Translations under genes and position numbers: made by a program
Assembly (NCBI RefSeq): GCF_001735745.1
Contig: NZ_CP017260.1
Location: 1,980,001 to 2,012,000, forward strand
Direction: 5' to 3'
From: Formosa sp. Hel1_33_131
GTDB lineage: Bacteria; Bacteroidota; Bacteroidia; Flavobacteriales; Flavobacteriaceae
DNA: 32,000 nt
Part shown: positions 1,289 through 26,182 of the stretch, one piece after another
Layout: each line of letters starts with the position of its first letter
Numbering within the stretch: position 1 is the stretch's first letter
The notes under the pieces: model-generated
The model's database searches: none
What the model was told of the DNA's origin: nothing
The model's input: the letters and a program-made list of their open reading frames with translations, nothing else

Positions 1289-2806
1289 TCAAATAAATAG
1301 AGGAAGCGTCCAGTGTTCCTTGTCTTCCTTCAATAAATCTTTGTAGATGTCCCAGATAGGGATGTCGAATGCATCCGGTAGGTGAGTGGTGTGCTGTTGC
1401 TTCATGCTCTGGTTACGTTCGTCCTTCTTGACCTTCTGAATGCCATTCTTATCCTCAGCAGCTTCAGCGCGCTCGAGTCCAATGATAAGATCCGGGTTGT
1501 TTTGTTCGTTGATTGCGATGGATGGATAACGTGAACTGGTAGCCTTCAGCATCATGTTCATGAGTATATATTTCCCATTGTGAGGGGCCACAGGCTTACC
1601 TTTACTCTTATCATACACCGTCCACCCCTTCGATTCCAGTAGCCGCACGAGGACATCGCCATAGGTGTCGTTCGTACCCTTCTTGACTCGGGCGTTACCA
1701 TCGTGACCATAATAGAGGTGAAGGACCTTGTTAGGCAGCGGCGCATAGTATTCCACAAAGTTATTAACGAGATCCTCGAGGTCTCGTGTCTCACTAGACT
1801 GAGACGCCCACATGGATTTAAGTACTTTGTATTGATTAGGCAAAGATTGACTAATCACAGCAGAGATAAATACCCCCCAATCGATCGAAAGGATAAGAGG
1901 ACGCCCCTTATCAATGTCATTGTCCTGTTTACAATTGAAAGACTTCTCTGTATAATTAGCGGTAATTCCCTCCAGATAATCGTTATTATAATCGGTATAA
2001 TAATGACTCTTTTTAAGTTGAGGATAAAATCCATTAAGAATCTCCTTAGGCCGTATATTTAATATTTCAGCATTGTAATATAAATCCGATGGTGATTCGT
2101 CCTTCATCTCTTCAAACCATTCTTCCCGTAAATTAAACTTATTGATTAAAGCACTCGCTTTGATAAAGGCATATTTCTCAGGCTTCTTTTTAGCCACTTT
2201 CTCAATATCCGTAAACCAGCGCCCTTTCTTAGTTAAAGGAGTAGAAGAGGCATAAATCTCAGCACCGAGCAAAGAACAATTTTCAAAACGGGCTTCTTTA
2301 GCTCTGTTGGTAGTTTTTACATTCGTAAATAGTTTCTCTGGATCAAACAAAGAAGCTTCATCTCCTAAAATACCAAATGAATTCAAACCACGTCCACTAT
2401 TCGGACTATCGAGCGATACCAATTGAAAAACAGAACCATTCGAAAAATGTATAATGTTATCCCATTTGTCAGGCGCATAGATAGGCTCAGCAAATCCAAG
2501 TTTAGCACCTTTTTTCCCAACAACATAATCATAACCTTCATAAATCCCCAGAGCTGCCAAACCGTTTTTTGTTGATGGAAGTGTCCGGGACAAAATCTGT
2601 TGATACGTAGAACCAACCAAAGCAAACGAAGCACCAGGCATTTGCTTTACCATTTCCTTCATGAAAAATGCCAGAATAAACGATTTACCCGTGCCTCGAC
2701 CCCATTCAAGATATATCTTCGTTTTTCCCAAAACAGTAACCGCCAAGACAGCCGCCAACTGCGCCGCATTCAAAACAATATCTAAGTACTTGCTTACTTT
2801 ACTCAT
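1289..2806 (-). CDS. terL: Terminase large subunit
   Basis: Walker A GRGTGKSF and Walker B-like ILGDEA, about 505 aa. I chose the start at ATG 2806 (MSKVSKYL), which overlaps the upstream stop by 8 nt (ATGAGTAA). Confidence 0.85.
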   Translation of the reverse strand: MSKVSKYLDIVLNAAQLAAVLAVTVLGKTKIYLEWGRGTGKSFILAFFMKEMVKQMPGASFALVGSTYQQILSRTLPSTKNGLAALGIYEGYDYVVGKKGAKLGFAEPIYAPDKWDNIIHFSNGSVFQLVSLDSPNSGRGLNSFGILGDEASLFDPEKLFTNVKTTNRAKEARFENCSLLGAEIYASSTPLTKKGRWFTDIEKVAKKKPEKYAFIKASALINKFNLREEWFEEMKDESPSDLYYNAEILNIRPKEILNGFYPQLKKSHYYTDYNNDYLEGITANYTEKSFNCKQDNDIDKGRPLILSIDWGVFISAVISQSLPNQYKVLKSMWASQSSETRDLEDLVNNFVEYYAPLPNKVLHLYYGHDGNARVKKGTNDTYGDVLVRLLESKGWTVYDKSKGKPVAPHNGKYILMNMMLKATSSRYPSIAINEQNNPDLIIGLERAEAAEDKNGIQKVKKDERNQSMKQQHTTHLPDAFDIPIWDIYKDLLKEDKEHWTLPLFI

Positions 2807-3368
2807 CCTCTTCCACTTCTTGAAATTCAGCATCTACCGTCATGTCGTTGAAGTCTAAAACACCCGTTGTCAAATGGCTTATAATCGCATCCGTCACCTC
2901 TTTAGGAATAGACATCTTAACAGGCTTATTGTCTAGTTTTTCAGGGTTGTAATTAATGGCATTTTCATTGTCAATATCTGAGTATTTACCCAACAAAGTC
3001 AAAGCCGTTCCTATGGCTTTCAGGTCCTTTGCCTTAATAGCCATCAATAAATACTTATGCGAATATTCATACAAGATTGACAAAGTGCCATCTCGATCCG
3101 CTTTCATCACATTACCAAACAACCGCTCTGCATCCCGAAGATCCCGATAGGCTTGCGCGCGACTGATTTCGTATTTTTCCATTAAAACGTTGGTCGATTG
3201 CTCTCTGGAGTGGAAATTTTGACGCAATGCAAATGCCGCCAACCAACGGTCTTTTATTTCTGTTTGGTTGGCGGTCAGTGGGTATTTTGTAGAATCCTTG
3301 TAATACGCAAAAAGCTTGTCAAAAGTAGAATCGCCTGTTTTTATTGTTGGTAGTTTTGATATTGCCAT
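2799..3368 (-). CDS. Putative terminase small subunit / DNA-binding packaging protein
   Basis: 189 aa directly upstream of and overlapping terL. It has an HTH-like segment (ISRAQAYRDLRDAERLF) and an acidic tail. The call rests on position only. Confidence 0.45.
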   Translation of the reverse strand: MAISKLPTIKTGDSTFDKLFAYYKDSTKYPLTANQTEIKDRWLAAFALRQNFHSREQSTNVLMEKYEISRAQAYRDLRDAERLFGNVMKADRDGTLSILYEYSHKYLLMAIKAKDLKAIGTALTLLGKYSDIDNENAINYNPEKLDNKPVKMSIPKEVTDAIISHLTTGVLDFNDMTVDAEFQEVEEDE

Positions 3369-6270: not shown

Positions 6271-7224
6271 CTATACCCAGCTACTTACGTAAACGAGTTC
6301 GTTATAGCCAAATCCAAGGCCTTCCCACCAATCCGTCATCAAAAAGACTTCTCTTTTGCTCTCTTCAACTTTTGGTTTGTTCATTCCATTAGTACGTCTT
6401 AGGTACAAGAAATTATCAACAGGCGTCGCCCATAAGTATTTTTCACCAGCCATAGACGGCAATCCAACCAATTCACAGGTAGTAAAATCAATCGTTGGTT
6501 TGTTTGGATCGTAATTAATATCCATTCCGTGCGTATTACGCTTATCTCGGTTATACCATTTCAAAATCTTCGGATCCATATAAACGCGCATTTTTGTGCC
6601 AGCCAATGCATTGTCAAAACTATCCGTAAACTCTTCGATCACATCAAAAGCATTTGCTTGAGTAATAGCAGCACTCAGAGCTACCGACTGCATTGGTTGA
6701 GTTGTATTTGCCAAACCATCAACCAATAATTTCTTAACCCCGTCCAAAGTAGCAACTGCAGCACCAGCAGTACCAACAGTCGCAGCGGCATACGTTCCTT
6801 TAAAATAAGCTTTCAACTCCAGGTCCTCAGCCATCTGTGGAATGACATCATTTTCTAACATGTAACGGACAATTGGCCAGTTCTTGCGCTCAGCTTCGTC
6901 AATAGAACCTAAGAATCCTAACCAAGACCCTTTTACATCGTCTGGAAATAATTCTAAATCAATTTTTAAATTGCGCAAACGAATTTCGTTTGGTAAAAAT
7001 TCCAACGTCCCTTTGGCCGTAAAATTCTTTTGAAACTGTTGAACAATTTCACCCAATCGAGTGTTGGCAAATCGATACACTTCACCATCATATACAATGG
7101 GTTTTGCATAACTGGTCGTTTTTGATTTCTGGCGCAATTGCGTCATTAATCGTTTTTCGTTTTGTCCTTCTGGAATATAGTAAGACCCAAACTGAGTCAC
7201 TATTGCTGTTTTTGTTATTCCCAT
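6271..7224 (-). CDS. Putative major capsid protein
   Basis: 317 aa, immediately downstream of the prohead protease-scaffold gene. The size and position are typical of a capsid gene, but the fold was not verified. Confidence 0.65.
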   Translation of the reverse strand: MGITKTAIVTQFGSYYIPEGQNEKRLMTQLRQKSKTTSYAKPIVYDGEVYRFANTRLGEIVQQFQKNFTAKGTLEFLPNEIRLRNLKIDLELFPDDVKGSWLGFLGSIDEAERKNWPIVRYMLENDVIPQMAEDLELKAYFKGTYAAATVGTAGAAVATLDGVKKLLVDGLANTTQPMQSVALSAAITQANAFDVIEEFTDSFDNALAGTKMRVYMDPKILKWYNRDKRNTHGMDINYDPNKPTIDFTTCELVGLPSMAGEKYLWATPVDNFLYLRRTNGMNKPKVEESKREVFLMTDWWEGLGFGYNELVYVSSWV

Positions 7225-7242: not shown

Positions 7243-8565
7243 TTAATAATTCATATCTGCAGAGATGTCCATCCCTTCGATTACATTCGGATTGTCGTCG
7301 TCTGCATTTTCAGGACCATCTAAACTCGTTGATGGCTTAGCACCATCCGCAGCACCATATTCTGCAACCAATGCAGAGAGGGCTGCAACACCTTGTTCGT
7401 TGCTCATTGTAGCAGCACCTTCTACTTCAGCAGTTGCCAAAGCATTTTGGATCGCTGTTGTAACCGTTGTACTCGTAGCGGTTAAGCCTGTTATTTTTTC
7501 ATCTAAAGCAGTGGCTTCAGTCGCCGCCGTAGCTATTGCCGTGTCATTTTCAGACAATCGGTTTTCAAGCGCAGTGGCTTGTGCATCCGTCAAAATGATG
7601 CCCTGTTCGGTTTCTCCTTCAGCAAAAGAACTTCCGATGACTGCCTCTATTAAAGGCACTTTTAAATCGCTCATTGTATTTTTTTTAGAGTTATTTTTAT
7701 TTGAATTATTTGGAGTCGTTTTTGACAGTTCAAAAACTTTATCAATTGCAGTTTGTAAGGTTCCAATCTGGTCGATTAGACCGTTTGACAATGAATCTTC
7801 AGCATTATAAACGCCACCGGACAAAACGGATTCGTTTAAATTACTTCTAACTGAAGTCATATCGTTATGAAATGTGTCGACAATAGGATCTAAAACATTT
7901 TTTATATAACCTTTAGGGTCACCGTTCAATAAGTCCTCAAAGTCTTTATTTTTGTCAGTTGATTTTGTAGCATATTCTGTAATCACCTTAGCTCCTTTTT
8001 TTTCATAGAAGCCTTTCATATTAACAAAACTTGTCATCGCTCCAATACTGCCAATAGAATCAGCACGTTTATTGGCAACAACATGACTCGCAGCACTGCC
8101 TATATAATAAGCAGCACTACACATCAAACCATCGGTATAAGAAACAACAGGTTTTGAATAGTTTTTAATAAAATCGTGAAATTCAGGCGTTCCTGAAACT
8201 TGACCGCCACCGCTATCAATATCTAAAACAACACCCTTACAATTCGGATCCGACTCGTGTCGAGCCATTATTTGCTGTTTGGTCTTAGTCCCATTAGGAC
8301 CACATTCTTGATTGTATTTAAAAATTGGATTTTTTAAAGAAACGACTAAAACATAACCATCTTTATTGGTTTGGTTATTAAATGTTTGAGCAGAAACAGA
8401 AACAGATCCTTGCACTATAAATTCTTCAGAAATAAAATCTTCTTTATTTGAAGCTGGCATTTTTCCACTTAAAATGGAATATAGAGAAGGTAACAATGTA
8501 TGTCCGTAGGATTCATTTATAAACCAACGACCACCAACTAAAGAATGTAAATTATTTAAATTCAT
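7243..8565 (-). CDS. S49-family (SppA/ClpP-like) prohead protease fused to an Ala/Thr-rich scaffold-like C-terminus
   Basis: Motifs VVLDIDSGGGQVSG and MCSAAYYIGSAA are typical of S49 peptidases. The C-terminal ~150 aa are low-complexity, helical and acidic. Confidence 0.8.
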   Translation of the reverse strand: MNLNNLHSLVGGRWFINESYGHTLLPSLYSILSGKMPASNKEDFISEEFIVQGSVSVSAQTFNNQTNKDGYVLVVSLKNPIFKYNQECGPNGTKTKQQIMARHESDPNCKGVVLDIDSGGGQVSGTPEFHDFIKNYSKPVVSYTDGLMCSAAYYIGSAASHVVANKRADSIGSIGAMTSFVNMKGFYEKKGAKVITEYATKSTDKNKDFEDLLNGDPKGYIKNVLDPIVDTFHNDMTSVRSNLNESVLSGGVYNAEDSLSNGLIDQIGTLQTAIDKVFELSKTTPNNSNKNNSKKNTMSDLKVPLIEAVIGSSFAEGETEQGIILTDAQATALENRLSENDTAIATAATEATALDEKITGLTATSTTVTTAIQNALATAEVEGAATMSNEQGVAALSALVAEYGAADGAKPSTSLDGPENADDDNPNVIEGMDISADMNY

Positions 8566-15536: not shown

Positions 15537-15794
15537 TTAGATGTTTTTTTGTTCATCAATTTTCTTTTGAGCATCAAAATAATGCGCATATCCTTCGTGT
15601 ATTTTTTCAGTCCATTCCGTGCCTTTAGAGTGGTACATTTTTTTACCTTCAATGATTTTAGAAGCCCCTAACGAGAAATCTTTAAGCTCATTGAACTCAA
15701 CCACTAAAAAATAGAACACGCCGCAAGGCACTGGGTAAATGCGGATGCCTAAAGCGTTACAAAACGCCATACGTTGACTTTGTTGGAGATTCAT
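15537..15794 (-). CDS. Hypothetical phage protein, 85 aa
   Basis: ORF track. ATGA overlap with the primase stop. Confidence 0.55.
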   Translation of the reverse strand: MNLQQSQRMAFCNALGIRIYPVPCGVFYFLVVEFNELKDFSLGASKIIEGKKMYHSKGTEWTEKIHEGYAHYFDAQKKIDEQKNI

Positions 15795-18700
15795 ATATCT
15801 GCTTTTATGTCTGTTAATTCTTTACTAAACAACCCGGGATCTTCGTCCTCGGGGTCTCTGTCCGTATTTTGTTCCAACGTGACCAGTCCATTTTTACGCA
15901 TCATAGTGTAATTGAAAGCATAACAACTCTGAGATCCTGCCGCCCCAAAATGTTTGGAAGGAACCAGACCAATAAAATAAGGGCGCGATTTAAAATAACT
16001 GCGCAGCGTGGTCTGTCCAATCACATCAATTCCTTCGCGCTTGGTTGCTTCTTTGTTATAGTCTTGATAAACGGTCTTTAAGCGCAAATACAAAATTTGA
16101 TCGCCGTTGCTGTTTTTGTACTCAACCTTTCTTCTGTTTTCAGTAAGATTAAAAGTCGGATCTGTATCAATTTTAAAATCTTTTTTATCATTAATCATTC
16201 CGTGTTCAAACATATATGTCACAATGTTCCAGAATTCAGTGAGTCCATTACTATCCGAAATCAATTCAGAATTATCAATAATCAATTTCACACAAAGCGT
16301 TTCAACTTCAGCTTCCGTAAATGGAAATTTTATTTTATCCTTTAAAATAGCATAAGTGGTATAAAGCATCGAAACATTTCCGAACATACGCTCCTGATAC
16401 GTTTCTGAGCTTAGAAGCTTTTTTAAATGCCGCTCCGTTTCAGCGTGGACCAATGGCAACCTTTGCTCAAAATACGATCGATGCTTCACAATTTTAACCA
16501 CCAAACTACTGATCCCAGAATTACTCCAGTTCAATAATTTATTATATTCAGACTTCTCTTCAGCAGTAAAACCTTTTACTTTGTCCAACAAAAACAACTG
16601 CGATATAGTTCGAGTAGCCAGTGCATTTTCATTATACGTTGGCATAAACTGTCCGGCATAATAAACCGCAGAATTAATTTTGTCAATCGAACTTCGGTTC
16701 GTTCCAACGCCGTTTCCTTTCTCCCGTCCGTTTCCATTCCAAACCCCCATCAATAGATCCGCAACCTCCGGACGTACCGCCTTATCCTTATATTCGTCAC
16801 AAAAATTAACTGCATTCGTAGTCCGGGTGAGCCTCCGAGACAACCCAACGTGTGTGGCTTGTGTCAAATCCAGAGCTGGCAACCGATAATAAAAGAAGTT
16901 TTGCAGGATCTTTCCAAACCCCGATTTTCCAGAATCCTTTTCACCAAAACCACCCAACAAAGGGAAAAAATCGTAATGCGCCAAAAAGAGATCCCGAAAC
17001 AACGCCCCAAAATTAAAGAGAATACCAGTAATGCCTTTCTCTTTAAAAACAAGAATCATTTGTTTCTGCCAATCCTCTAACGTAATACCAGACTCCTTAT
17101 AAACAAAATACCGGTCATTCTCGTACTTGTCATCGCCCTGTTGGTTGTCTTGATGCATCACTGAAAATGCCGGAGAATAATAATTATCTATTTTTTGATT
17201 ATATTCGTTTTCAACCGCATCAATTCCTTCTAAATTCATGATGCCGTATTTATTAACCGATCTGAATTTCCCTTCCCAAAACACCCCATTCGCAAAGGCA
17301 TAAAAACCTTTGGTATTCCATCCCATCGTCAGCAGCTCGAGTGCCGGTTCAAATTCTTCTTCAAATCGATACACAAATTTGTCAAAATGTTCTGTTCGTA
17401 CACCATTATGAGTCAAAAACATGAAACCGCCAATACGAAAAAGGTATTTTCTAAAATCATTGAAATTTGCAAGCATATCACTATCAAAATCAATCAGTTT
17501 CTTTTTGCCTCTTAAATTAGTGATTTCACAAAGGCGTTTGTTTTCCTTATCTCCTTGTATATGGAACAGGGGTTCCATCTTAAAAGTAGTCCCTTGAAAA
17601 AAGGTGGTGTTTGTGGTTCTTTGGAAATGGTAAGAATTGCCAACCGTTACAAATCCATGACCTTCCATATATTCATCTTTATCTGCACCATCAGGCAAAC
17701 GAACCCCACGCATCGAAAGCTTGCCGCCTTCAGTTTCTTTGACCTCCGTGGATTTTACTTCAAACTTTCCAATTTCAGCCTTGAGCGTAGTGGCTCCAAT
17801 TTGCAATAATTTTGCAACTTGCTTCACATACTCCGTCCGTTTTACCTCATGCTTTATTAAAAATAAGGTTTCAGCCACATCCGTCACCGCCTTCGCTTTT
17901 TTGTAAGGATCAATTTTTTGTACCTCACTTAATTCTTGTGTTTTTTGGGCTTTCAGTTGTCTAATATTTTTGGAAACATCTTTGTTTGTTTCTTTGGCGG
18001 CTTTCAGTTCATCGCCTTTCAAATCCGTTAAATCAATTTTAACATTCAATTCTTCTTCAATCAACAAATCAAACTGTTTTGTAGTTGAGTCCAAATCTGC
18101 TTGATACCGATCGCGAATCATTTCAAATTGAGACGCTTTATACAACACGGCATCCTGTTTGTTGTCGTTGATCCAAGTATGCATATCTAACTGAATCCGT
18201 GCAAAGCTGTCTGGATCTTCTCCATCCGGGAGGATGCAGATCGATACATTCAATCCATAAGACAGACACAAATCAATATCACCATCTTTTTTGAGCATCG
18301 TCCGTAAGCCTGCTGGGTCACCATCGCGCAATAAAATAACTTCTTCAGCATATTTTTTTAAAAGCTGCACATGTTTCGTTGTCAGAGCCGTACCGCACGA
18401 TGCTACCGTGTTTTCGCAATTGTGCTGGTGCATGGCAATTACATCCGTATAACCCTCCGTTAGAATGACCGCACCGAGCTTGTTAATCGTTCGCTTTGCT
18501 TGGTACAACCCGTATAAAATCGAAGATTTGTCATATATTGGATTTTCCTTTGAATTCAAATATTTATAACTCGAGTCAAGTTTTGGATCGTTCGACTGAC
18601 GGCCGCCAAAACCAACAACGGATCCTTTTTCGTTGTGGATTGGAAACATGAGGCGGCTTCTAAAAAAATCGTAGGTAGAAGATTCTTTTGTTTTTATCAA

Positions 18701-19246
18701 CCCTAATTCTTTGGCCGTCCCAACAGTGGCTTTTTCAATCGCCCATTTAGTCAGCTTGTTTTGGTCGCAACTGTACCCTATTTCAAAATTGATAAGACTG
18801 TCCTCGTCAAAACCTCGATCGGCTATCATTTGCTTTGCCCAGTGCGACGGTTTCAATTTTCGGAACGCGTTCACAAAACTGCGATTTGCTTGTTTTGTAA
18901 GCGTGTACATTTCTGTTTTAATATCCCTTTGTCGTTGAACTTCTGGAGTCACAGCTTCTTCATCCAAAAAAATGTTGTGAATTTTAGAAATGATTCTCAC
19001 CGCATCCAAAAAATCTACAGATTCATGTTGCATGACAAATGCAATCCCATCACCACCAAAGCCAGTGGAATAGCATTTAAAAATCTGTTTTACTGGAGAT
19101 ACCACAAACGAAGCTGTTTTTTCTGTTGCAAAAGGAGACTTGCATTTATAATTACTTCCGGCTTTTTTTAATTCCACAAAATTAGCAATCGTTTTTACGA
19201 TGTCGGATTCTCTAACTCTGTCTATGGATGCGTTGCTATAACTCAT
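15791..19246 (-). CDS. DNA primase (CHC2 zinc finger + Toprim) fused to a large C-terminal P-loop domain; putative primase-helicase
   Basis: It has a zinc-finger region (CKSPFATEKTASF...FKCYSTGFGGDGIAF), Toprim motifs (ILTEGYTDV, LLRDGDPAG) and a Walker A-like GEKDSGKSGFGK near residue 760. Confidence 0.85.
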   Translation of the reverse strand: MSYSNASIDRVRESDIVKTIANFVELKKAGSNYKCKSPFATEKTASFVVSPVKQIFKCYSTGFGGDGIAFVMQHESVDFLDAVRIISKIHNIFLDEEAVTPEVQRQRDIKTEMYTLTKQANRSFVNAFRKLKPSHWAKQMIADRGFDEDSLINFEIGYSCDQNKLTKWAIEKATVGTAKELGLIKTKESSTYDFFRSRLMFPIHNEKGSVVGFGGRQSNDPKLDSSYKYLNSKENPIYDKSSILYGLYQAKRTINKLGAVILTEGYTDVIAMHQHNCENTVASCGTALTTKHVQLLKKYAEEVILLRDGDPAGLRTMLKKDGDIDLCLSYGLNVSICILPDGEDPDSFARIQLDMHTWINDNKQDAVLYKASQFEMIRDRYQADLDSTTKQFDLLIEEELNVKIDLTDLKGDELKAAKETNKDVSKNIRQLKAQKTQELSEVQKIDPYKKAKAVTDVAETLFLIKHEVKRTEYVKQVAKLLQIGATTLKAEIGKFEVKSTEVKETEGGKLSMRGVRLPDGADKDEYMEGHGFVTVGNSYHFQRTTNTTFFQGTTFKMEPLFHIQGDKENKRLCEITNLRGKKKLIDFDSDMLANFNDFRKYLFRIGGFMFLTHNGVRTEHFDKFVYRFEEEFEPALELLTMGWNTKGFYAFANGVFWEGKFRSVNKYGIMNLEGIDAVENEYNQKIDNYYSPAFSVMHQDNQQGDDKYENDRYFVYKESGITLEDWQKQMILVFKEKGITGILFNFGALFRDLFLAHYDFFPLLGGFGEKDSGKSGFGKILQNFFYYRLPALDLTQATHVGLSRRLTRTTNAVNFCDEYKDKAVRPEVADLLMGVWNGNGREKGNGVGTNRSSIDKINSAVYYAGQFMPTYNENALATRTISQLFLLDKVKGFTAEEKSEYNKLLNWSNSGISSLVVKIVKHRSYFEQRLPLVHAETERHLKKLLSSETYQERMFGNVSMLYTTYAILKDKIKFPFTEAEVETLCVKLIIDNSELISDSNGLTEFWNIVTYMFEHGMINDKKDFKIDTDPTFNLTENRRKVEYKNSNGDQILYLRLKTVYQDYNKEATKREGIDVIGQTTLRSYFKSRPYFIGLVPSKHFGAAGSQSCYAFNYTMMRKNGLVTLEQNTDRDPEDEDPGLFSKELTDIKADI

Positions 19247-19427: not shown

Positions 19428-19563
19428 AGCGGTTTAGTTTAGTTCTATAATAATCATTTAACCCTTTTTTGTCTTTAGAGCTAATATTCTTGTCTTGGTC
19501 GGTCAAACTCATCTGATGCTTCAGCTCGTCGATGCGGTTGTTTATATACGTGATTATGCTCAT
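19360..19563 (-). CDS. Hypothetical phage protein, 67 aa
   Basis: ORF track. Its start overlaps the upstream stop (TAATG). Confidence 0.5.
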   Translation of the reverse strand: MSIITYINNRIDELKHQMSLTDQDKNISSKDKKGLNDYYRTKLNRYVNIQKKLTKTIEVKAEILNPD

Positions 19564-19727
19564 TATTTTTTAGTTTCACTTTTCAGAAACGCGCTAAAAG
19601 CTTTCACTTCAGAAGGTTTGAATTCATTGGGCGTTCTGGTGATTAAATTAGAATTACTGTCTCTGTACACTTCCTTTCCATTGATGGAGTAGGTGTCGTC
19701 GCCTGTTTTTTTAATTTCTATGACCAT
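19563..19727 (-). CDS. Hypothetical phage protein, 54 aa (MVIEIKKTGDDTYSINGKEVY...)
   Basis: Hand translation; it is below the ORF-track size cutoff. It overlaps the upstream gene by 10 nt and the downstream start by 1 nt. Confidence 0.45.
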   Translation of the reverse strand: MVIEIKKTGDDTYSINGKEVYRDSNSNLITRTPNEFKPSEVKAFSAFLKSETKK

Positions 19728-19921
19728 AATTGAAGTATTTCTTGATACAAACAGTATGCATTATAGCACGTAAAAACCCCGATAGCAATCCCCGGTACAC
19801 CCCAGATCACCAACCATTTTTTTTCATTTCTTTTAAAATGATTTATAAACTGAATGGCATAAAAAACAAGCATCGCAATCCAAATAATTTGAAGTACAAT
19901 AAATATAAATAGGTGGTTCAT
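19718..19921 (-). CDS. Small membrane protein, 67 aa, two predicted TM helices
   Basis: ORF track. There are two hydrophobic stretches separated by HFKRNEKK. Confidence 0.55.
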   Translation of the reverse strand: MNHLFIFIVLQIIWIAMLVFYAIQFINHFKRNEKKWLVIWGVPGIAIGVFTCYNAYCLYQEILQLWS

Positions 19922-20014
19922 GATTTTTATTTTTATTTGGGATGATAGAGAGAAGGCTTATAAACTCCCTATCTGCCCCAAATTGGTTAACTTTTTTTAG
20001 CCTTTTTGGTTATA

Positions 20015-20131
20015 TTAATTTGCAAACGATGCTCCGCAGTCATGACAACTAAAGCTGTTATATCCATCAGAACAATGATTTGCAACTTGCTCTAAATTAT
20101 TACTATTACACATTATACAATTGCCCATCAT
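20015..20131 (-). CDS. 38-aa CxxC...CxxC zinc-ribbon-like peptide (MMGNCIMCNSNNLEQVANHCSDGYNSFSCHDCGASFAN)
   Basis: Hand translation. ATGA overlap with the stop of the LuxR-type gene. Confidence 0.45.
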   Translation of the reverse strand: MMGNCIMCNSNNLEQVANHCSDGYNSFSCHDCGASFAN

Positions 20132-20718
20132 GCTATAATTTTATACTGAATTGATAAATAGAGTAATTCCGTTTTAGTCGTCACCCCAAGGGCCCTAAAC
20201 AGTCGAGACTTATGAAAGTCTAGTGTTTTGGTAGTCACCCCAAGCGCGGCCGCAATGGCTTTGTCTGGGAGGTTATCGGCTATAAAATCAACGATCACCA
20301 ATTGGCGAGGTGTGAAAACATGATTTTTGATGTTTATATTTTTTGAATCCCATAACAAGCTAGGACAGTTCCGGGAGTCTCTAAAGTTTTCGGATGGGGC
20401 TAGTTTCCCGTTTTTGATGTCTGGAGTTGCGTCGAGGCTTCCGTACATATAATAAGTGTACAATTCTACTTGTGTACGTAACTTATCAGACACTTCGGAC
20501 AAAAAAGCAATGGCCGTATGGTCTTTTAAATACGCGTTTTTTAGAAGTGTATAATAGTACAAAGGCAAATCACTGAAGTAGTGATTATTCCCATTTTGCA
20601 TCCAAAGGACTTGCTTTGTTTTTCGGACGCCAATAAATTCAAGGTTTGAATCATTAGGCATGAGCCCAGCAATTTGTGGGTAAGCTTTAAAATTTGTAAT
20701 TTTGACATTGTTAATCAT
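20128..20718 (-). CDS. LuxR/GerE-type HTH regulator with an uncharacterised N-terminal domain
   Basis: The C-terminus (TPRQLVIVDFIADNLPDKAIAAALGVTTKTLDFHKSRLFRALGV) matches the LuxR_C HTH pattern. Confidence 0.75.
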   Translation of the reverse strand: MINNVKITNFKAYPQIAGLMPNDSNLEFIGVRKTKQVLWMQNGNNHYFSDLPLYYYTLLKNAYLKDHTAIAFLSEVSDKLRTQVELYTYYMYGSLDATPDIKNGKLAPSENFRDSRNCPSLLWDSKNINIKNHVFTPRQLVIVDFIADNLPDKAIAAALGVTTKTLDFHKSRLFRALGVTTKTELLYLSIQYKIIA

Positions 20719-20744
20719 AGGTTTAAGAATTTGATTAATAAAAA

Positions 20745-21014
20745 TTAAACATCCGCAGTTCCAGCTGCGGATTTTTTATGCAATAAGTTTTCTCTTTTTT
20801 GTTGTAGTGCTAATCGTTTATCAACGACTCTATATATAGCTGCCTCAATTACATCATGGCTTTCACCATTCATCACATTTGTAATATGACTGGTTGAGTA
20901 GGACTGACCGCCCTTGTTAAACTCTTTAGAAGTATTCAATTCTTCTTGAATCAAAGGAGCGCATCGATACCCTATGATGTTTTTAATCGATTCTTTGTCT
21001 GTGGCTGTTATCAT
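20745..21014 (-). CDS. Cro-position early protein, 89 aa (paralog of 24294..24569)
   Basis: It is the first gene of the leftward operon, divergent from the CI-like repressor. It is ~60% identical to the paralog by hand alignment. Confidence 0.65.
   Translation of the reverse strand: MITATDKESIKNIIGYRCAPLIQEELNTSKEFNKGGQSYSTSHITNVMNGESHDVIEAAIYRVVDKRLALQQKRENLLHKKSAAGTADV
20751..20772 (-). terminator. Hairpin ATCCGCAG/CTGCGGAT overlapping the 3' end of the cro-position gene, followed by a U-rich tract
   Basis: 8-bp GC-rich stem. The minus-strand downstream sequence is GUUUAAUUUUUAUU. It lies 27 nt before the LuxR-type start. Confidence 0.5.
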
Positions 21015-21054
21015 GGAAAAACCCTATTTGTTTGTTTCGTTTTTTTCTTTTACT

Positions 21055-21082
21055 TTACTGACGTATTACTGACACAAATATA
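21055..21082 (-). promoter_or_regulatory. Leftward early promoter -7 box TATATTTG (21082-21075) with adjacent TTACTG direct repeats (operator-like)
   Basis: TTACTG occurs at 21055-21060 and 21066-21071 (11-bp period). The same layout is conserved at 24610-24637. Confidence 0.55.
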
Positions 21083-21110
21083 GCATATAAATATACTAGT
21101 ATCCAAATTT

Positions 21111-21485
21111 ATGGTAAATAATTTTACTAATATTAAAAAAAGAATACGTCAAATAGCTAAAGACAAGAACATTAGCTATGAGAAATTATATAAAATAATT
21201 CAAATGACAGACGGAAGTTTTAAAGGTTCTGCCATAGATAGGCCCATAAATTCTGACGCAATAGTAAAATTATATACTCATTTTCCAGACATTAATTTAG
21301 AATGGTTAATCACTGGCCAAGTGAAAACCCCCACAAATGCGGTTCATGAGTCGTCCAATACGCCCGATTTTAAAGCGAAATACTTAGATGTCGTAGAAAA
21401 TTACATGATACTTAATAATGAAAATTCCGAGTTAAGACAGGAACTGAAAACCTTAAAAAAACAATTATTAATTAAAAATGAATAA
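21111..21485 (+). CDS. CI-type phage repressor (HTH N-domain, coiled-coil C-terminus)
   Basis: The domain end INLEWLITGQ is typical of the phage CI repressor HTH family. There is a leucine-zipper-like tail, and the gene is divergent from the early operon. Confidence 0.7.
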   Translation: MVNNFTNIKKRIRQIAKDKNISYEKLYKIIQMTDGSFKGSAIDRPINSDAIVKLYTHFPDINLEWLITGQVKTPTNAVHESSNTPDFKAKYLDVVENYMILNNENSELRQELKTLKKQLLIKNE

Positions 21486-21514
21486 ATAACCCCCTAATTT
21501 AATACCTACTTATT

Positions 21515-21970
21515 ATGAGAAACACAATTACAGCCGTCCTTTTACTTTTTATGAGTTTTGGTTATGCTCAAATTAAAAAAATAGAAGTCACCAAACCAAC
21601 AAGAATTGGCAAAGTTGGTAACTTTGCTGTTACAGAATTTTTTTGTGAGAAGGCAAATAACACTTATAGATTTACTTTTAGAGATATAAATTACACCCAT
21701 TTAACGGAATACAAATCTTTTGAATTTGACGATATAGACAATGCTTTTGAAAATTTATATAACCTAATAATTGAAGGATTTAATAAACCACCAAAAGATG
21801 ACGTTTTTATAGAATTGCCTGAAGGTGTTTTAAAGCTCCATTTTATTAAAGCAGTTGGAATTGTAAATATGAATATGGATTTCTCTAAAAATGGTATATC
21901 TGGTCTCTCGGGCTGGCTAACAAAAAGGAAAGTAATTAAGTTATTTGGTAAAAAGAAAAAAAAGAAATGA
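21515..21970 (+). CDS. Secreted protein, 151 aa, co-oriented with the repressor (lysogeny-expressed moron candidate)
   Basis: Signal peptide MRNTITAVLLLFMSFGYAQ and a poly-Lys tail. Confidence 0.6.
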   Translation: MRNTITAVLLLFMSFGYAQIKKIEVTKPTRIGKVGNFAVTEFFCEKANNTYRFTFRDINYTHLTEYKSFEFDDIDNAFENLYNLIIEGFNKPPKDDVFIELPEGVLKLHFIKAVGIVNMNMDFSKNGISGLSGWLTKRKVIKLFGKKKKKK

Positions 21971-22098
21971 AAAACGAGAATTCAATATCATTTAAGATCA
22001 CCGAAAACGAAGACGACGGACTTTCTTTAGCCATCGAGAAACTACTCAAAAAAGAGCGTTTGTCCCAACAGATTCCCAATGAGAATATAACTAACTGA
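21967..22098 (+). CDS. 43-aa acidic ORF (MKNENSISFKITENEDDGLSLAIEKLLKKERLSQQIPNENITN)
   Basis: Hand translation. ATGA overlap with the upstream stop. Confidence 0.3.
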   Translation: MKNENSISFKITENEDDGLSLAIEKLLKKERLSQQIPNENITN

Positions 22099-22100
22099 TA

Positions 22101-22389
22101 GTCAATATCAAAAATGGTACATTATAACCTTGCCGAGGTCACGAATGAATAGTACAAACAAAAAAAACACCAAGCTTGCTTGAGTGTTTTTTTGTTTGTA
22201 CTATTCTCAAAGCGGAGCTTTGTCAAGATCATGGAATAATCTTGTTAAGTTCCTTAGAAGTAAAAATAAAGAGCTTGTTTTTTTATTAGAGTTTTCAAGC
22301 AGAAACAAAAATAAAAATCTATGATTTTTGGCTTTCTATTTAGACTACGGAGCTTTGTCAAGATCATGGAATACTCTTGCCGAGGTCAC
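22101..22389. repeat. Three copies of a ~42-bp unit CGGAGCTTTGTCAAGATCATGGAATAnTCTTGCCGAGGTCAC (22101-22142 degenerate, 22213-22244 3'-truncated, 22348-22389 intact)
   Basis: Read directly from the sequence. Confidence 0.7.
22147..22206. repeat. Long hairpin with a ~23-bp stem (one bulge) and a 13-nt loop containing CAAGCTTG
   Basis: GAATAGTACAAACAAAAAAAACAC pairs with GTGTTTTTTTGTTTGTACTATTC. It is a possible terminator of the repressor operon. Confidence 0.6.
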
Positions 22390-22508
22390 ACTTGATACTC
22401 AATAAAATGATTAAAATGGGTGTAATATATGACCGCTCAAATAAAGATCACTATTTACTTTGATACAAAAAGACTAAAAAACAACCCTTACTTTGTTACA
22501 AAATATAT

Positions 22509-22516
22509 TATATTTG
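22509..22516 (+). promoter_or_regulatory. Perfect Bacteroidota -7 box TATATTTG, 26 nt upstream of the ATPase start
   Basis: Matches the TAnnTTTG consensus. I found no well-spaced -33 TTTG. Confidence 0.4.
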
Positions 22517-22541
22517 CACTTACTTTATAACATAGTATATT

Positions 22542-23909
22542 TTGATTTTAAAAAGACATCTTACAGCACAATTGCATAAATGGAAAATCAAATCCAATCG
22601 AAAACCTTTAATTGTTAGAGGTGCAAGACAAGTTGGGAAAACTACTTTGATCAATGCCTTTTCAAAAACTTATAAAAATCGCTTATACCTTAACTTAGAG
22701 AAAAAAGCAGATAGCCAGTACTTTGAACAAACGGATAATGTAAATACAATCATTGAAGCTCTATTTATTTCAAATAACATCATTTCGAAAGATATCGGTA
22801 ATACAATACTTTTCATTGATGAGATACAAGAACAGCCAAAAGCAATACAGCTTTTGCGATATTTTTATGAAGAGGCTCCTGATCTTCATGTTATAGCAGC
22901 AGGTTCTTTACTCGAATTTGCACTTAAAAATGTTAAAAGTTTCCCTGTAGGAAGAGTTGAGTTTTTATATCTATATCCTTTTAATTTTATAGAATATTTA
23001 GAAGCAATTGATCACAGTACAGGTCTAGAACAACTAAATAATATTCCTATAAATAACGTTGCTCATAAAACGTTACTCGATTTGTTCAATAAATACACCA
23101 TTATAGGTGGAATGCCAGAAGTAGTTAGTCAATTTGCCAAAAGTAACAGTATCGTCGATCTCTCCTCTATTTATGAGAGTATTTGGAGTTCCTACATTAG
23201 TGATTCAGAAAAATATACAACGAATACAACGGCCAAAAATGTGATTAAGCATATTATGTCATCAGCGGCATATGCTGTTGATGAGCGAATTAAATTCCAA
23301 AATTTTGGCAATTCTAACTATCGCTCAAGAGAGGTTGGCGAAGCAATGCGGAATTTACATCAAGCAAAGGTTATTCAACTTATTTATCCAACGACTGCTA
23401 CCGAACTTCCTATAATACCAGATTTAAAAAAATCACCTAGACTGCAATTTTTGGATACGGGCATACTTAATCATATTTTAGGTATTCGAGCAGAGATGTT
23501 GGTTTTAGAAGATTTAAGCCAAAGTTATAAAGGTGCTATTGTACCACATATTGTAACTCAGGAAATCATTTCTATCCAAAGTAATAAGTCCGAATTACCT
23601 AGTTTTTGGGTAAGAGAAAAAAAGCAAGCATCATCTGAGGTGGATTTGGTCTTTGCGATGGATGGAAAGCTAATTCCAATTGAAATTAAATCAGGAAGTA
23701 CGGGCTCATTAAAATCACTTCATCAATTTATAGAACGCACAAATCATCCCTATGCTATTAGGATGTTTGCAGGGGAGTTTTCAATACAAGAAACAAAAAC
23801 ACCCAGCGGAACCCCATACTTACTGATGAATCTACCTTACTATTTAGGAAGCCTAATTCCTCACTATGTCACCTATTTTATAAAAAACTATCAATTATCT
23901 AAAACATAA
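22542..23909 (+). CDS. AAA+ ATPase with C-terminal PD-(D/E)xK-like (DUF4143-type) domain
   Basis: Walker A GARQVGKTT, Walker B ILFIDEIQ, and a C-terminal EVDLVF...IPIEIKSGS motif. The start is TTG; there is no in-frame ATG after the upstream stop at 22533. Confidence 0.8.
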   Translation: MILKRHLTAQLHKWKIKSNRKPLIVRGARQVGKTTLINAFSKTYKNRLYLNLEKKADSQYFEQTDNVNTIIEALFISNNIISKDIGNTILFIDEIQEQPKAIQLLRYFYEEAPDLHVIAAGSLLEFALKNVKSFPVGRVEFLYLYPFNFIEYLEAIDHSTGLEQLNNIPINNVAHKTLLDLFNKYTIIGGMPEVVSQFAKSNSIVDLSSIYESIWSSYISDSEKYTTNTTAKNVIKHIMSSAAYAVDERIKFQNFGNSNYRSREVGEAMRNLHQAKVIQLIYPTTATELPIIPDLKKSPRLQFLDTGILNHILGIRAEMLVLEDLSQSYKGAIVPHIVTQEIISIQSNKSELPSFWVREKKQASSEVDLVFAMDGKLIPIEIKSGSTGSLKSLHQFIERTNHPYAIRMFAGEFSIQETKTPSGTPYLLMNLPYYLGSLIPHYVTYFIKNYQLSKT

Positions 23910-23930
23910 TTAATCCGACCTAGGTCATTT

Positions 23931-23969
23931 AAAAACAAAGCAAGCTCAAAATAATGAGCTTGCATTTTT
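23931..23969. terminator. Bidirectional intrinsic terminator
   Basis: Stem GCAAGCTCA/TGAGCTTGC is flanked by an A-run and a T-run, between convergent genes. Confidence 0.7.
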
Positions 23970-23990
23970 GAATTTGTAAAGGTGTTGATT

Positions 23991-24161
23991 TCATATAAAG
24001 TCCAGAGAGTAGCCTTTGATATATGTTTCGATCATTAAATAAATAACACATAAAAACATTAAAGCCCATATAGCTGCAGTTTTATACTTTTTATCTTGAT
24101 AATAGATGCTTATTAAAGTGCCGTAGCCCATAAGTAGTACAATATAAATAATTATTATCAT
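23991..24161 (-). CDS. Small membrane protein, 56 aa, two predicted TM helices
   Basis: Hand translation (MIIIIYIVLLMGYGTLISIYYQDKKYKTAAIWALMFLCVIYLMIETYIKGYSLDFI). It is in the same relative position as 19718..19921. Confidence 0.4.
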   Translation of the reverse strand: MIIIIYIVLLMGYGTLISIYYQDKKYKTAAIWALMFLCVIYLMIETYIKGYSLDFI

Positions 24162-24171
24162 GTGTCTTAAT

Positions 24172-24270
24172 TTATCGTTTTATGAATCTCAAAAACCTTA
24201 ACGCCTGAGTCCTAAATTCATTGATTTGCGGATAAGGACTAAAAGTTGTAATTTTGTAATAGTTAACCAT
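24172..24270 (-). pseudogene. 32-codon remnant of a LuxR-type regulator gene (MVNYYKITTFSPYPQI...)
   Basis: The N-terminal 16 residues align with MINNVKITNFKAYPQI of 20128..20718. The upstream DNA (CATAGATTTAAT...) also parallels 20716-20745. Confidence 0.55.
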
Positions 24271-24293
24271 AGATTTAATTTTTTGCGAATAAT

Positions 24294-24569
24294 TTAAAGT
24301 TTCGAGATTGCAGTTACATCCGCGTTTTTTTTATTGATTAGGAATCTTCTTTTTTTTTGAATTTTCAAACACTTTTTGACAACTCTGTAAATAGCCGCTT
24401 CAATGATCTTATGTTTTTCACCGTTCATTACATTAGTGATATGTCCTTTAGAGTAGGGCGCACCAACTTTATTAAATTCGTTACTATCAATTAATTCCTT
24501 TTGAATGAGAGATGCATATGGATGTCCGATAACGCTCTTTATTGATTCTCTGTCCGACTTATTAATCAT
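24294..24569 (-). CDS. Cro-position early protein, 91 aa (paralog of 20745..21014)
   Basis: It shares the core HITNVMNGE.H..IEAAIYRVV and is divergent from a second CI-type gene. Confidence 0.65.
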   Translation of the reverse strand: MINKSDRESIKSVIGHPYASLIQKELIDSNEFNKVGAPYSKGHITNVMNGEKHKIIEAAIYRVVKKCLKIQKKRRFLINKKNADVTAISKL

Positions 24570-24609
24570 AGAAAAATTCTATTTTTTTATTTCATTTTTT
24601 TCTGTTACT

Positions 24610-24637
24610 TTACTGATGTATTACTGTTGCAAATATA
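24610..24637 (-). promoter_or_regulatory. Second copy of the leftward promoter (-7 box TATATTTG at 24637-24630) with TTACTG repeats
   Basis: TTACTG occurs at 24610-24615 and 24621-24626, with the same spacing as in module 1. Confidence 0.5.
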
Positions 24638-24679
24638 ATATAAATATCTAAAAAATAAAAATAATTATCTAATTATTTA

Positions 24680-25033
24680 ATGACGCATAAAGAAAAAATA
24701 TTGCAATATCTTAATTATAAGAATATAAAGCCCACTTGGTTTTGTAGGACTTGTAAATTTTCTAATGGCTTTTTAGACTCTGGAAAGTCTTTTGGGACGG
24801 ACAAATTAGCTATTATTTTAGATAATTATAAAGATTTAAACGTGAAATGGTTGCTTTTTGATGAAGGCGATATGCTTTTATCGGACACAAATATTGTAAA
24901 TGAACCTCATTCAAATTACGGAAAAGAGGTTAAAGAAATGCTTTACGACCAAATTGAAAAAAACTTAATATTAAAGACCAAAAATAAATCTTTGCAAGAA
25001 AGCATCGAGAACTTAAAAAAAACGGATCAATAA
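24680..25033 (+). CDS. Second CI-type repressor-like protein, 117 aa
   Basis: LNVKWLLFDEGDM matches the CI HTH-domain end motif. It has a coiled-coil tail and is much less similar to 21111..21485 than the cro-side paralogs are to each other. Confidence 0.6.
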   Translation: MTHKEKILQYLNYKNIKPTWFCRTCKFSNGFLDSGKSFGTDKLAIILDNYKDLNVKWLLFDEGDMLLSDTNIVNEPHSNYGKEVKEMLYDQIEKNLILKTKNKSLQESIENLKKTDQ

Positions 25034-25048
25034 GTTTCTGATTAAGTC

Positions 25049-25081
25049 AAATGTTTCTCCACTATCAAACATTTTTTTTTA
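25049..25081 (+). terminator. AT-rich hairpin plus T9 run after the second repressor gene
   Basis: AAATGTTT-N10-AAACATTT followed by a T-run. Confidence 0.5.
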
Positions 25082-25153
25082 CAAATCCACACGATTTGAT
25101 ATTTTCCTTCAAAATATAAAACCAGTTAACTATCTTTGAGTTTTAATATACAG

Positions 25154-26182
25154 ATGCAAGAAAAAATTATTGTTACAGGCGGTTGTGGTTACATTGGGTC
25201 CCATACAGTCATCACATTGATTAACCACAATTATGAGGTGGTGATCCTTGATGATTTGTCAAATTCCAATGTTCAAATTTTAGATCGAATTGAAAAAATT
25301 ACAGGCGTTAGACCTCATTTTGAACAGGTCGATTTGAAATCTTCTGAAGCAACCCAAGCTGTTTTTAAAACCCATAAAGATGCAAAGGCAGTCATTCATT
25401 TTGCAGCCCATAAAGCAGTGGCGGAATCCATTCAAAATCCGTTGATGTATTATCAAAACAATCTTTTTTCATTAATCAATACATTGAAAGCGCAGCAAGA
25501 TAATGGCATCAATCACCTTATTTTCTCGTCTTCGGCAACCGTTTATGGAAACCCTTCCACAATGCCCATTACCGAAGATGCCCCTACCCAACGTTCATTT
25601 TCTCCTTATGGAAATACTAAAAAAATTGCAGAAGAAATTCTAGAAGATTTCACCAATTCACAATCAGAGATATCCGTCATTTCATTGCGTTATTTTAATC
25701 CTATTGGAGCGCATGAATCCGGACAAATAGGGGAGTTCCCCACAGGAATCCCAAATAATTTAATGCCTTATATCACACAAACAGCTGCAGGTGTGAGAGA
25801 AAAACTAATGGTATTCGGAAATGATTATCCAACCAAAGATGGCACGCCCATTAGAGATTACATCCACGTGGTGGATTTAGCAGACGCTCATTTAAAAGCA
25901 CTCCAAAGACTCCTCGATCCATCGTCCACTCAACCCCTAGAAGTTTTTAATTTGGGAACAGGAAAAGGGTACTCGGTACTCGAAATGATCAAAGCTTTTG
26001 AAGCGGTGAGTGGAAGCCCATTAAACTATGAAATCACAGAGCGAAGACCTGGCGATGTCCCCGAAATGTTTGCATCTACAGCCTTGGCGAAACAGGTGCT
26101 GAATTGGGAAGCAACCCGTGGTTTACAAGAGATGATTCAGTCTTCATGGACTTGGGAACAAAACCTTAGAAACGAGCTTTAA
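25154..26182 (+). CDS. galE: UDP-glucose 4-epimerase
   Basis: Rossmann motif GGCGYIGSH, catalytic YxxxK (SPYGNTKK), typical length. I preferred the ATG at 25154 over the TTG at 25136. Confidence 0.9.
   Translation: MQEKIIVTGGCGYIGSHTVITLINHNYEVVILDDLSNSNVQILDRIEKITGVRPHFEQVDLKSSEATQAVFKTHKDAKAVIHFAAHKAVAESIQNPLMYYQNNLFSLINTLKAQQDNGINHLIFSSSATVYGNPSTMPITEDAPTQRSFSPYGNTKKIAEEILEDFTNSQSEISVISLRYFNPIGAHESGQIGEFPTGIPNNLMPYITQTAAGVREKLMVFGNDYPTKDGTPIRDYIHVVDLADAHLKALQRLLDPSSTQPLEVFNLGTGKGYSVLEMIKAFEAVSGSPLNYEITERRPGDVPEMFASTALAKQVLNWEATRGLQEMIQSSWTWEQNLRNEL

Follow-up and report, generated by a model that had tools for sequence, protein, structure and literature searches.

Two related phage-type switches in Formosa sp. 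Hel1_33_131: a variable prophage and a probable ancient hetero-immune relic

A window of 32,000 nucleotides (nt) from Formosa sp. Hel1_33_131 (contig NZ_CP017260.1, positions 1,980,001 to 2,012,000) contains two divergent gene pairs, here called modules 1 and 2, each consisting of a repressor gene in CI position and a smaller gene in cro position. With a probability that we put at about 0.7, this locus reflects two unrelated events of one phage family, namely the insertion of a variable prophage (prophage 1), whose switch is module 1, and the retention of an ancient hetero-immune relic, module 2. The same estimate covers the reading of module 2 as an old, domesticated prophage relic that predates the divergence of several Formosa-like species. 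The four open reading frames (ORFs) of the two modules, which an earlier note on this DNA had delimited from the sequence, are all present at the positions it gave, and they stand among the following features (aa, amino acids; kb, kilobases; HTH, helix-turn-helix; TM, transmembrane; AF2, AlphaFold2).

20745-21485: module 1 switch, at the right end of prophage 1
20745..21014, minus strand: cro1, gene in cro position in prophage 1, encoding 89 aa and opening the leftward early operon, from an uncharacterised four-helix family
21111..21485, plus strand: CI1, CI-position repressor of prophage 1, 124 aa, HTH and coiled-coil tail (ORF, phrog_147)
24172-25033: module 2 relic, ~0.9 kb
24294..24569, minus strand: cro2, cro-position gene, 91 aa, 61% identical to cro1
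24680..25033, plus strand: CI2, retained repressor, 117 aa, predicted XRE-type HTH and long C-terminal helix (AF2 model, Foldseek)
24270..24172, minus strand: LuxR-like stub of 32 codons (pseudogene), its translation ending in a stop
23991..24161, minus strand: orf56, small ORF with two TM segments, last of the leftward unit (ORF list)
25154..26182, plus strand: galE, host gene outside the module and right border of the relic in most lineages (Pfam Epimerase, E = 1.6e-48)

Origin and age of module 2

The two modules are clearly related. Identity between the cro-position proteins, previously estimated by hand at about 60%, was measured at 53 of 87 residues (61%; BLASTP E = 1e-35), and homology extends past the cro-like genes, with 77% DNA identity between positions 20672-20733 and 24224-24285, which correspond to the start of a LuxR-like gene. 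The CI proteins had been described as sharing their domain layout only; the common layout was recovered, but sequence homology is detectable as well, at 25% identity over 114 aa (E = 1e-7). The intergenic block reported as common to both modules was likewise found, since TTACTTTACTGAYGTATTACTG occurs as exact copies at 21050-21071 and 24605-24626 (twice in 32 kb, against 0.00 expected) and the cro-proximal half of the spacer aligns throughout. Recent duplication of the prophage 1 switch within this genome, whether in tandem, one of the two origins that the earlier note had offered, or as a segment, would account for the identical architecture of modules only 3.5 kb apart, for the similarity of the cro-like proteins and for the common spacer block. 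However, synonymous sites between cro1 and cro2 are saturated (proportion of synonymous differences, pS, 0.71; third-position identity, 49%; ratio of nonsynonymous to synonymous divergence, dN/dS, 0.13), the CI proteins share no more than the 25% identity given above, and module 2 occurs in genomes without prophage 1 and in other species. We therefore count duplication as refuted.

Module 2 occurs independently of prophage 1. The comparison across strains that had been proposed as a check showed module 2 in all ~21 host contigs, including every one without prophage 1, which is present in some only. North Sea metagenome contigs are 99.4-99.7% identical to the window from 22126 rightward. Across the ~21 population contigs, cI2 and the spacer contain zero reliable single-nucleotide polymorphisms (SNPs), cro2 varies by three synonymous SNPs and one nonsynonymous SNP, and the sole indels of module 2 are found in one error-prone long-read contig (L017). 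Apparent partial deletions of module 2 in three contigs (L022, L023, L016) were rejected as scaffold gaps of 100 N with 55-nt overlaps. Such breaks recur in independent metaSPAdes scaffolds at 24382-24436 and 25010-25064, the first possibly caused by SNPs at 24381 and 24396 and the second without any SNP; the segment 24382-25064 may have a second genomic context, for instance in a circulating phage.

Orthologous loci with the order (orf56), (LuxR stub), cro-like gene, spacer, CI-like gene and galE were found in related lineages (L035-37, L038, L044/45 and L051-L062), with CI2 homologues at 66-85% identity and a galE 85-92% identical to that of the window. Selection was estimated over nine Formosa-like lineages, the galE values coming from a separate comparison, as follows (dS, synonymous divergence).

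CI: median dN/dS 0.137 (range 0.05-0.25), median dS 1.33
cro-like: median dN/dS 0.225 (range 0.125-0.5), median dS 0.85
galE: dN/dS 0.065-0.072, dS 0.7-1.15

Synonymous divergence of module 2 is thus comparable to that of the flanking galE, and the 110-nt spacer between the two genes is near-invariant across the nine lineages, far above the conservation of synonymous sites. The cro-like gene is intact in nine of the ten orthologous lineages examined; in L038-40 it is truncated at codon 40 and its promoter has lost the -7 box, with CI intact. The left flank differs from lineage to lineage and the decay of the stub and orf56 varies (the L051 stub, for example, has a stop at codon 4), yet the cro/CI pair persists. 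Were module 2 neutral, slowly decaying debris of a dead prophage with both genes non-functional, this would agree with the LuxR stub, with a degenerate hairpin before it, with the weak constraint on orf56 (dN/dS 0.55), with the truncated cro of L038 and with a -7 box weakened in some lineages. It would not explain why both ORFs are intact in nine lineages at dS ~1 with dN/dS of 0.14 and 0.23, why the spacer exceeds synonymous conservation, or why the pair stays while its flanks decay, and we regard neutral debris as highly improbable. Vertical inheritance together with purifying selection in at least nine lineages is instead the signature of domestication. The decay of a second prophage, the other origin previously suggested, is supported, but it did not take place within the present genome, as the relic is older than the split of several species. 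A distant relative of CI2 (59% identical, 126 aa) stands alone in L041-L043, without a cro-like partner or galE and beside an insertion sequence-type transposase HTH gene, and looks like another solitary retained repressor.

Several observations point towards a phage as the source of module 2. Between a host-type ATPase gene and galE, the relic consists of just the LuxR stub, cro2, cI2 and orf56, as befits a defective remnant without structural, replication or integration genes, and the leftward unit under its presumed control is, as had been proposed, a remnant operon made of cro2, the LuxR-like stub and the 56-aa two-TM ORF. The corresponding 58-aa stub of L035 matches the N-termini of phage LuxR-like genes (E = 5e-5), and the full-length form of the stub gene was seen in phage contexts only. 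Within IMG/VR, the cro-like family lies near one end of five prophages. Prophage L001 has a CI1-type repressor; in prophages L049 and L050 the gene divergent from the cro-like one encodes a repressor with 45-54% identity to CI2 (54% in the HTH). In L050, as in L047, a related prophage, the early operon contains a LuxR-like gene further along, and the same LuxR, cro, CI order recurs in a metagenome contig (L073). The CI2-type repressors of L049 and L050 mark the CI type of the relic as a genuine phage immunity type and, with a full-length stub gene known from phage contexts only, indicate that the direction of transfer was from phage to host. Together with the purifying selection seen in nine lineages, the stub and the phage-type CI and boxes support the view, put forward as one of two options in the earlier note, that module 2 is the retained remnant of a second, related, hetero-immune temperate phage. 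A derivation of orf56 from the small TM gene of prophage 1 that lies 3' of LuxR (19718..19921) was considered and dropped, the two having zero similarity. Two prophages of the family, L047 and L048 (IMG/VR UViG_2744054993_000001 and _000002), share one isolate genome and have near-identical cro-like genes; L047 lacks a CI gene, and in L048 only a C-terminal fragment of 56 aa is left of it.

Control regions and proteins of the two switches

Promoters of Bacteroidetes carry the -7 consensus TAnnTTTG. Candidate promoters and operators of the two modules were placed as follows.

21047..21075: direct repeats in three copies with 11-nt phasing, CTTTTAC-TTTA-CTGACGT-ATTA-CTGACAC, candidate for a cro-type operator or 5' leader
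24602..24630: corresponding triplet of 11-nt-phased repeats in module 2, matching the module 1 copy at 24 of 29 positions
21075..21082, minus strand: -7 box TATATTTG, assigned putatively to the leftward cro1 promoter (pattern match)
24630..24637, minus strand: -7 box TATATTTG of the predicted leftward cro2 promoter (pattern match)
21093..21102: palindrome ATACTAGTAT, lying between -7 and -33, once in the window, weak CI1 operator candidate
24642..24672, plus strand: CI2-type box pair AAATATCTAA (24642-24651) and AATTATCTAA (24663-24672), 21 nt apart, proposed CI2 operators

Both modules have the 11-nt repeats directly downstream of the -7 box, and the cro-proximal half of the spacer is common to the two window modules and L001. 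The cro-like proteins of L049 and L050 are only ~45% identical, and there the repeats have the form GTGRTAY instead of CTGWTRY; the repeats therefore track the cro type and not the CI type. The spacer block previously reported is shared between the modules, but it follows the conserved cro-like protein, and the CI-specific sites lie in the opposite half. There, a pair of (A/T)TATCTA boxes at 21-nt spacing is found in all ten orthologous relics and in prophages L049 and L050, and CI1-type modules have other sequences in this CI-proximal half. The pair at 24642-24672 is unique in 32 kb, with no copy in prophage 1. As placed on the sequence, the CI2 boxes would overlap the spacer/-33 region of the leftward promoter, a position that would suit repression. 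The -7 box of cro2 retains TTTG in the window copy, L051, L053 and L058. A palindrome, AAATAATT-ATCT-AATTATTT (24659-24678), was dropped as the main CI2 operator, the conserved feature being the TATCTA box pair. The ATACTAGTAT palindrome is seen in module 1 only, L001 having another palindrome at that place, and an Rfam scan of 19500-25500 gave zero matches.

The location of cI2 directly 5' of galE and in the same direction in most lineages might suggest that CI2 was recruited to regulate host genes such as galE, as cryptic-prophage transcription factors that acquired host targets are known (PMC11430063, PMC11879457). Yet the CI2 box pair is absent near galE as it is elsewhere in the window, galE has a -7-like box of its own (TATCTTTG, 25131-25138), and the neighbourhood is not fixed: in L058 a gene is inserted between the pair and galE, and in L057 apt takes the place of galE next to the pair. 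Because of the latter arrangement the link to galE is positional rather than functional, and recruitment for its regulation appears improbable. The start listed for galE (TTG at 25136) is probably wrong, since orthologues begin at the ATG at 25154 (MQEKIIVTGG).

In its AF2 model (predicted local distance difference test, pLDDT, 79), CI2 comprises a five-helix N-terminal domain and a single long C-terminal helix. Top Foldseek matches were the N-terminal domain of TP901-1 CI and P2 C (probability 0.96), and further structural neighbours included ClgR, DdrO, 434 Cro and P22 C2 (root-mean-square deviation 1.5-2.3 A), with 13-16% sequence identity between CI2 and repressors of the TP901-1 CI and P2 C type. 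A Pfam search for an XRE HTH in the CI proteins returned zero matches, and the S24 autocleavage domain was also sought: no Peptidase_S24 match was obtained, and the CI proteins, at 117-124 aa, end in one long helix. Since CI2 lacks a protease domain, its induction would need an antirepressor or another route. CI1 matches phrog_147 (transcriptional regulator; E = 7e-4) and is 40% identical to the L001 CI across the HTH.

The cro-like protein is predicted to form three short helices and a 30-residue helix (AF2 model, pLDDT 85.5). An exhaustive profile search assembled 195 representative clusters of 80-95 aa proteins, where a word-based search gave 5, and a scan of 56 family members returned no meaningful Pfam or PHROG match. 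Sequence searches of the PDB gave nothing for either the CI-type or the cro-like protein, and neither prophage 1 nor the cro-like protein has relatives in INPHARED, a GenBank phage collection. 'Cro' is thus a positional label only, and DNA binding by this protein is putative. The protein does not fit the description of a small DNA-binding Cro that competes at the operators of the repressor, as the sites that co-vary with cro are distinct from the CI boxes.

Prophage 1 and its integration site

Prophage 1 is a complete-looking, movable element inserted in the 3' end of tRNA-Arg(ACG). Phage genes occupy the minus strand across window positions 1 to ~22125, and attL and the integrase fall outside the window. 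The features of prophage 1 inside the window, apart from module 1, include the following.

1289..2833, minus strand: terminase large subunit
7243..8565, minus strand: head maturation protease
15791..19246, minus strand: primase, 1151 aa
20128..20718, minus strand: LuxR/GerE-type early regulator, 196 aa (Pfam GerE, E = 3.4e-8)
20751..20772, minus strand: stem-loop ATCCGCAG-N6-CTGCGGAT, overlapping the final cro1 codons ~30 nt 5' of the LuxR-like gene (terminator scan)
21515..22098, plus strand: right-end cargo, comprising the gene for a secreted 151-aa protein and a 43-aa ORF
22129..22142, plus strand: attR core, the displaced 3' end of tRNA-Arg(ACG), 14-mer CTTGCCGAGGTCAC (pattern count)

Module 1 has the layout of a CI/Cro-type switch, with a repressor gene divergent from the first early gene across a short control region, and the prophage around it encodes terminase, protease and primase; L001, L049, L050 and L073 share this layout. 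The 14-mer at 22129-22142 lies directly 3' of the cargo genes and terminates an intact tRNA-Arg, which identifies it as the attR core: in empty-site contig L016, tRNA-Arg(ACG) is intact at 6679-6753, ends in this core and continues with the window sequence from 22143 onward. Leftward of the tRNA gene, empty-site contigs carry host genes, among them ClpS and a metallo-beta-lactamase/rhodanese gene. Insertion at the 3' end, a duplicated core and an empty site in relatives are the hallmarks of a tRNA-integrating prophage. Short contigs with the occupied junction were recovered from samples that also yielded empty-site contigs, and the exact cro1 protein was found on 13 contigs only, each <2 kb, so that prophage 1 is a variable element present in a minority of the population. 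The tRNA-Arg att core was also sought near galE, where it could have placed the right end of the relic, and was absent there.

The LuxR-like protein of prophage 1 is 68% identical to its L001 homologue at the same position. The stem-loop upstream of its gene resembles a terminator or attenuator, as far as the sequence allows, and may be an attenuator gating the LuxR-like regulator. A GC-rich stem-loop is kept in phage-borne modules whichever ORF overlaps it (window 20751-20772; L001 1884-1903; L047 3263-3284), with a compensatory change from GCAG/CUGC to GUAG/CUAC in L047, and its conservation accounts for the recurring 'KKSAAGTAD' protein tails; in chromosomal relics the stem-loop is degenerate. 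The primase is unusually large: a DnaG-type zinc finger, a catalytic core and Toprim occupy its first 350 residues, an extension of 800 residues with a partial phrog_1139 match comes next, and the protein is conserved in L001. The gene for the 151-aa secreted protein (21520-21989) is missing from three occupied-site metagenome contigs (L008, L009, L012) and is therefore variable cargo of prophage 1. Between attR and the ATPase gene, a 105-nt unit (22173-22277) is present in one to ~five copies among near-identical metagenome contigs, and a second, degenerate tRNA-Arg 3' end is found at 22348-22389 (core 22376-22389); these repeats and the degenerate end look like scars of earlier integrations at a hot spot.

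Possible roles of the relic and known counterparts

From the anatomy, orthology, selection, polymorphism of prophage 1 and box conservation described above, we infer binding partners and a benefit to the host along the following lines. The relic phage would have been deleted down to CI2, spacer, cro-like gene, LuxR stub and small membrane ORF before several Formosa-like species diverged, and would have been inherited vertically under purifying selection thereafter. CI2, with its predicted XRE-type HTH, helical oligomerisation tail and no protease domain, probably binds both TTATCTA boxes; bound in this way it would overlap the leftward promoter and keep cro2 and orf56 silent. Incoming phages with the same boxes could be repressed by CI2 too, which would amount to superinfection immunity of the repressor type. 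The targets of the cro-like protein would be the three 11-nt-phased repeats beside its own promoter, and since both modules share these cro-type repeats, cross-talk between prophage 1 and the relic at the cro level is possible. Most likely, then, the relic still works as a repressor switch that would provide immunity against phages with CI2 boxes, control the leftward unit, or both. The immunity or decoy function suggested earlier for module 2 is a plausible candidate.

Several observations weigh against this interpretation. The Foldseek matches of CI2 form a coherent list but have weak E-values (0.3-2), and the cro-like model matched no fold in the PDB or BFVD and presents no recognisable DNA-binding fold. 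No phage CI at least 70% identical to CI2 was found, including in a scan for close relatives in IMG/VR. A canonical rightward cI2 promoter was sought in the spacer and not found, and the cro2 -7 box reads TTTA rather than TTTG in four lineages. Finally, several lineages have lost orf56 and kept the pair, so control of orf56 is not a general reason for retention.

That last observation also bears on a reading of module 2 as an addiction or defence unit, in which CI2 would silence a harmful or abortive-infection effector, either orf56 or Cro2, in the manner of RacR or DicA. A leftward unit of cro2, stub and two-TM ORF fits this idea, and orf56 orthologues are 51-61% identical in L035, L055, L058-L062 and L079. 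The gene between the modules (22542-23909, plus strand), which encodes an AAA_14/DUF4143 ATPase, matches PADLOC candidate PDC-S01 (E = 1.5e-190), so that the relic adjoins a possible defence gene. Precedents come from cryptic prophages of Escherichia coli: RacR of Rac silences ydaS/ydaT (PMC5700373), DicA/DicC of Qin controls dicBF (10.1101/2023.04.14.536235), and DicB protects its host against phage (PMC6832061). On the other side, orf56 is weakly constrained and has no homology to known effectors in Pfam and PADLOC scans, and L038, L044 and L051 keep CI, mostly with cro, without orf56. Because three lineages dispense with it in this way, a pure orf56 addiction is unlikely, and we hold the same of the addiction or defence reading as a whole.

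A more speculative possibility, to which we assign a low probability, is that the host owns the relic as a sensor of phages. CI2 and Cro2 would then form a bistable switch, retained in a clade of species, that flips upon infection by a phage of the family or upon induction of the resident prophage, triggered either through the cro-type repeats common to both modules or by a phage antirepressor. Its output would be orf56, as a small membrane effector, or interference with the phage decision, and the cro-like family would be switch proteins of a new kind whose operators are distinct from the CI operators.

Marine Flavobacteriia are main responders to algal blooms, and we are aware of almost nothing on the lysis/lysogeny decision of their temperate phages, nor do we know of a characterised CI/Cro-type switch in Bacteroidota. 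The locus shows how such a switch is built across the family: a CI-type HTH protein, an uncharacterised cro-position family of ~195 clusters and candidate operators in two distinct sets. It also offers a natural experiment, in that one population exists both with and without prophage 1, and a minimal repressor pair that has been maintained since before at least nine related lineages diverged. If a role in immunity or infection sensing is true, the relic would be a compact, easily tested case of host capture of phage regulation beyond enterobacterial models.

Compared with known switches, the architecture of CI2 appears nearer, by its model, to the TP901-1 CI/P2 C class than to lambda CI. TP901-1 CI/MOR and P2 C/Cox share with the relic divergent genes and a compact spacer, and their repressors are the best structural matches to the model of CI2, a small protein with a predicted XRE-type HTH and a helical tail; these repressors have no RecA-cleavable domain, and P2 C operators are direct repeats, as predicted for CI2. 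The partner protein of the relic, on the other hand, belongs to an uncharacterised family and is unlike MOR or Cox by fold search. Lambda CI/Cro follows the same positional logic, with a repressor gene divergent from the first gene of the early operon and heteroimmune variants, but here the repressors lack an S24 peptidase domain, CI and cro sites are predicted in separate halves of the spacer instead of sharing operators, and the promoters are of Bacteroidetes type.

The closest analogues of module 2 as a whole are DicA/DicC of Qin and RacR of Rac. DicA/DicC is likewise a divergent repressor/cro-like pair left in a defective prophage beside a short leftover operon, which in that case is kept silent and whose small protein can protect against phage; zero sequence relationship was detected, and the relic differs in being ~0.9 kb long, in occurring in multiple species of Bacteroidota and in surviving the loss of its downstream small ORF. 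RacR, similarly, is a prophage-derived CI-type repressor next to a divergent unit, for the control of which it is retained, whereas CI is kept without cargo in some lineages of the relic, which argues against pure addiction; toxicity of cro2 or orf56 is hypothetical. In this respect the retention of a prophage relic belongs to a familiar class of events, observed here in a further group of bacteria where it is new and with an unstudied family of partner proteins.

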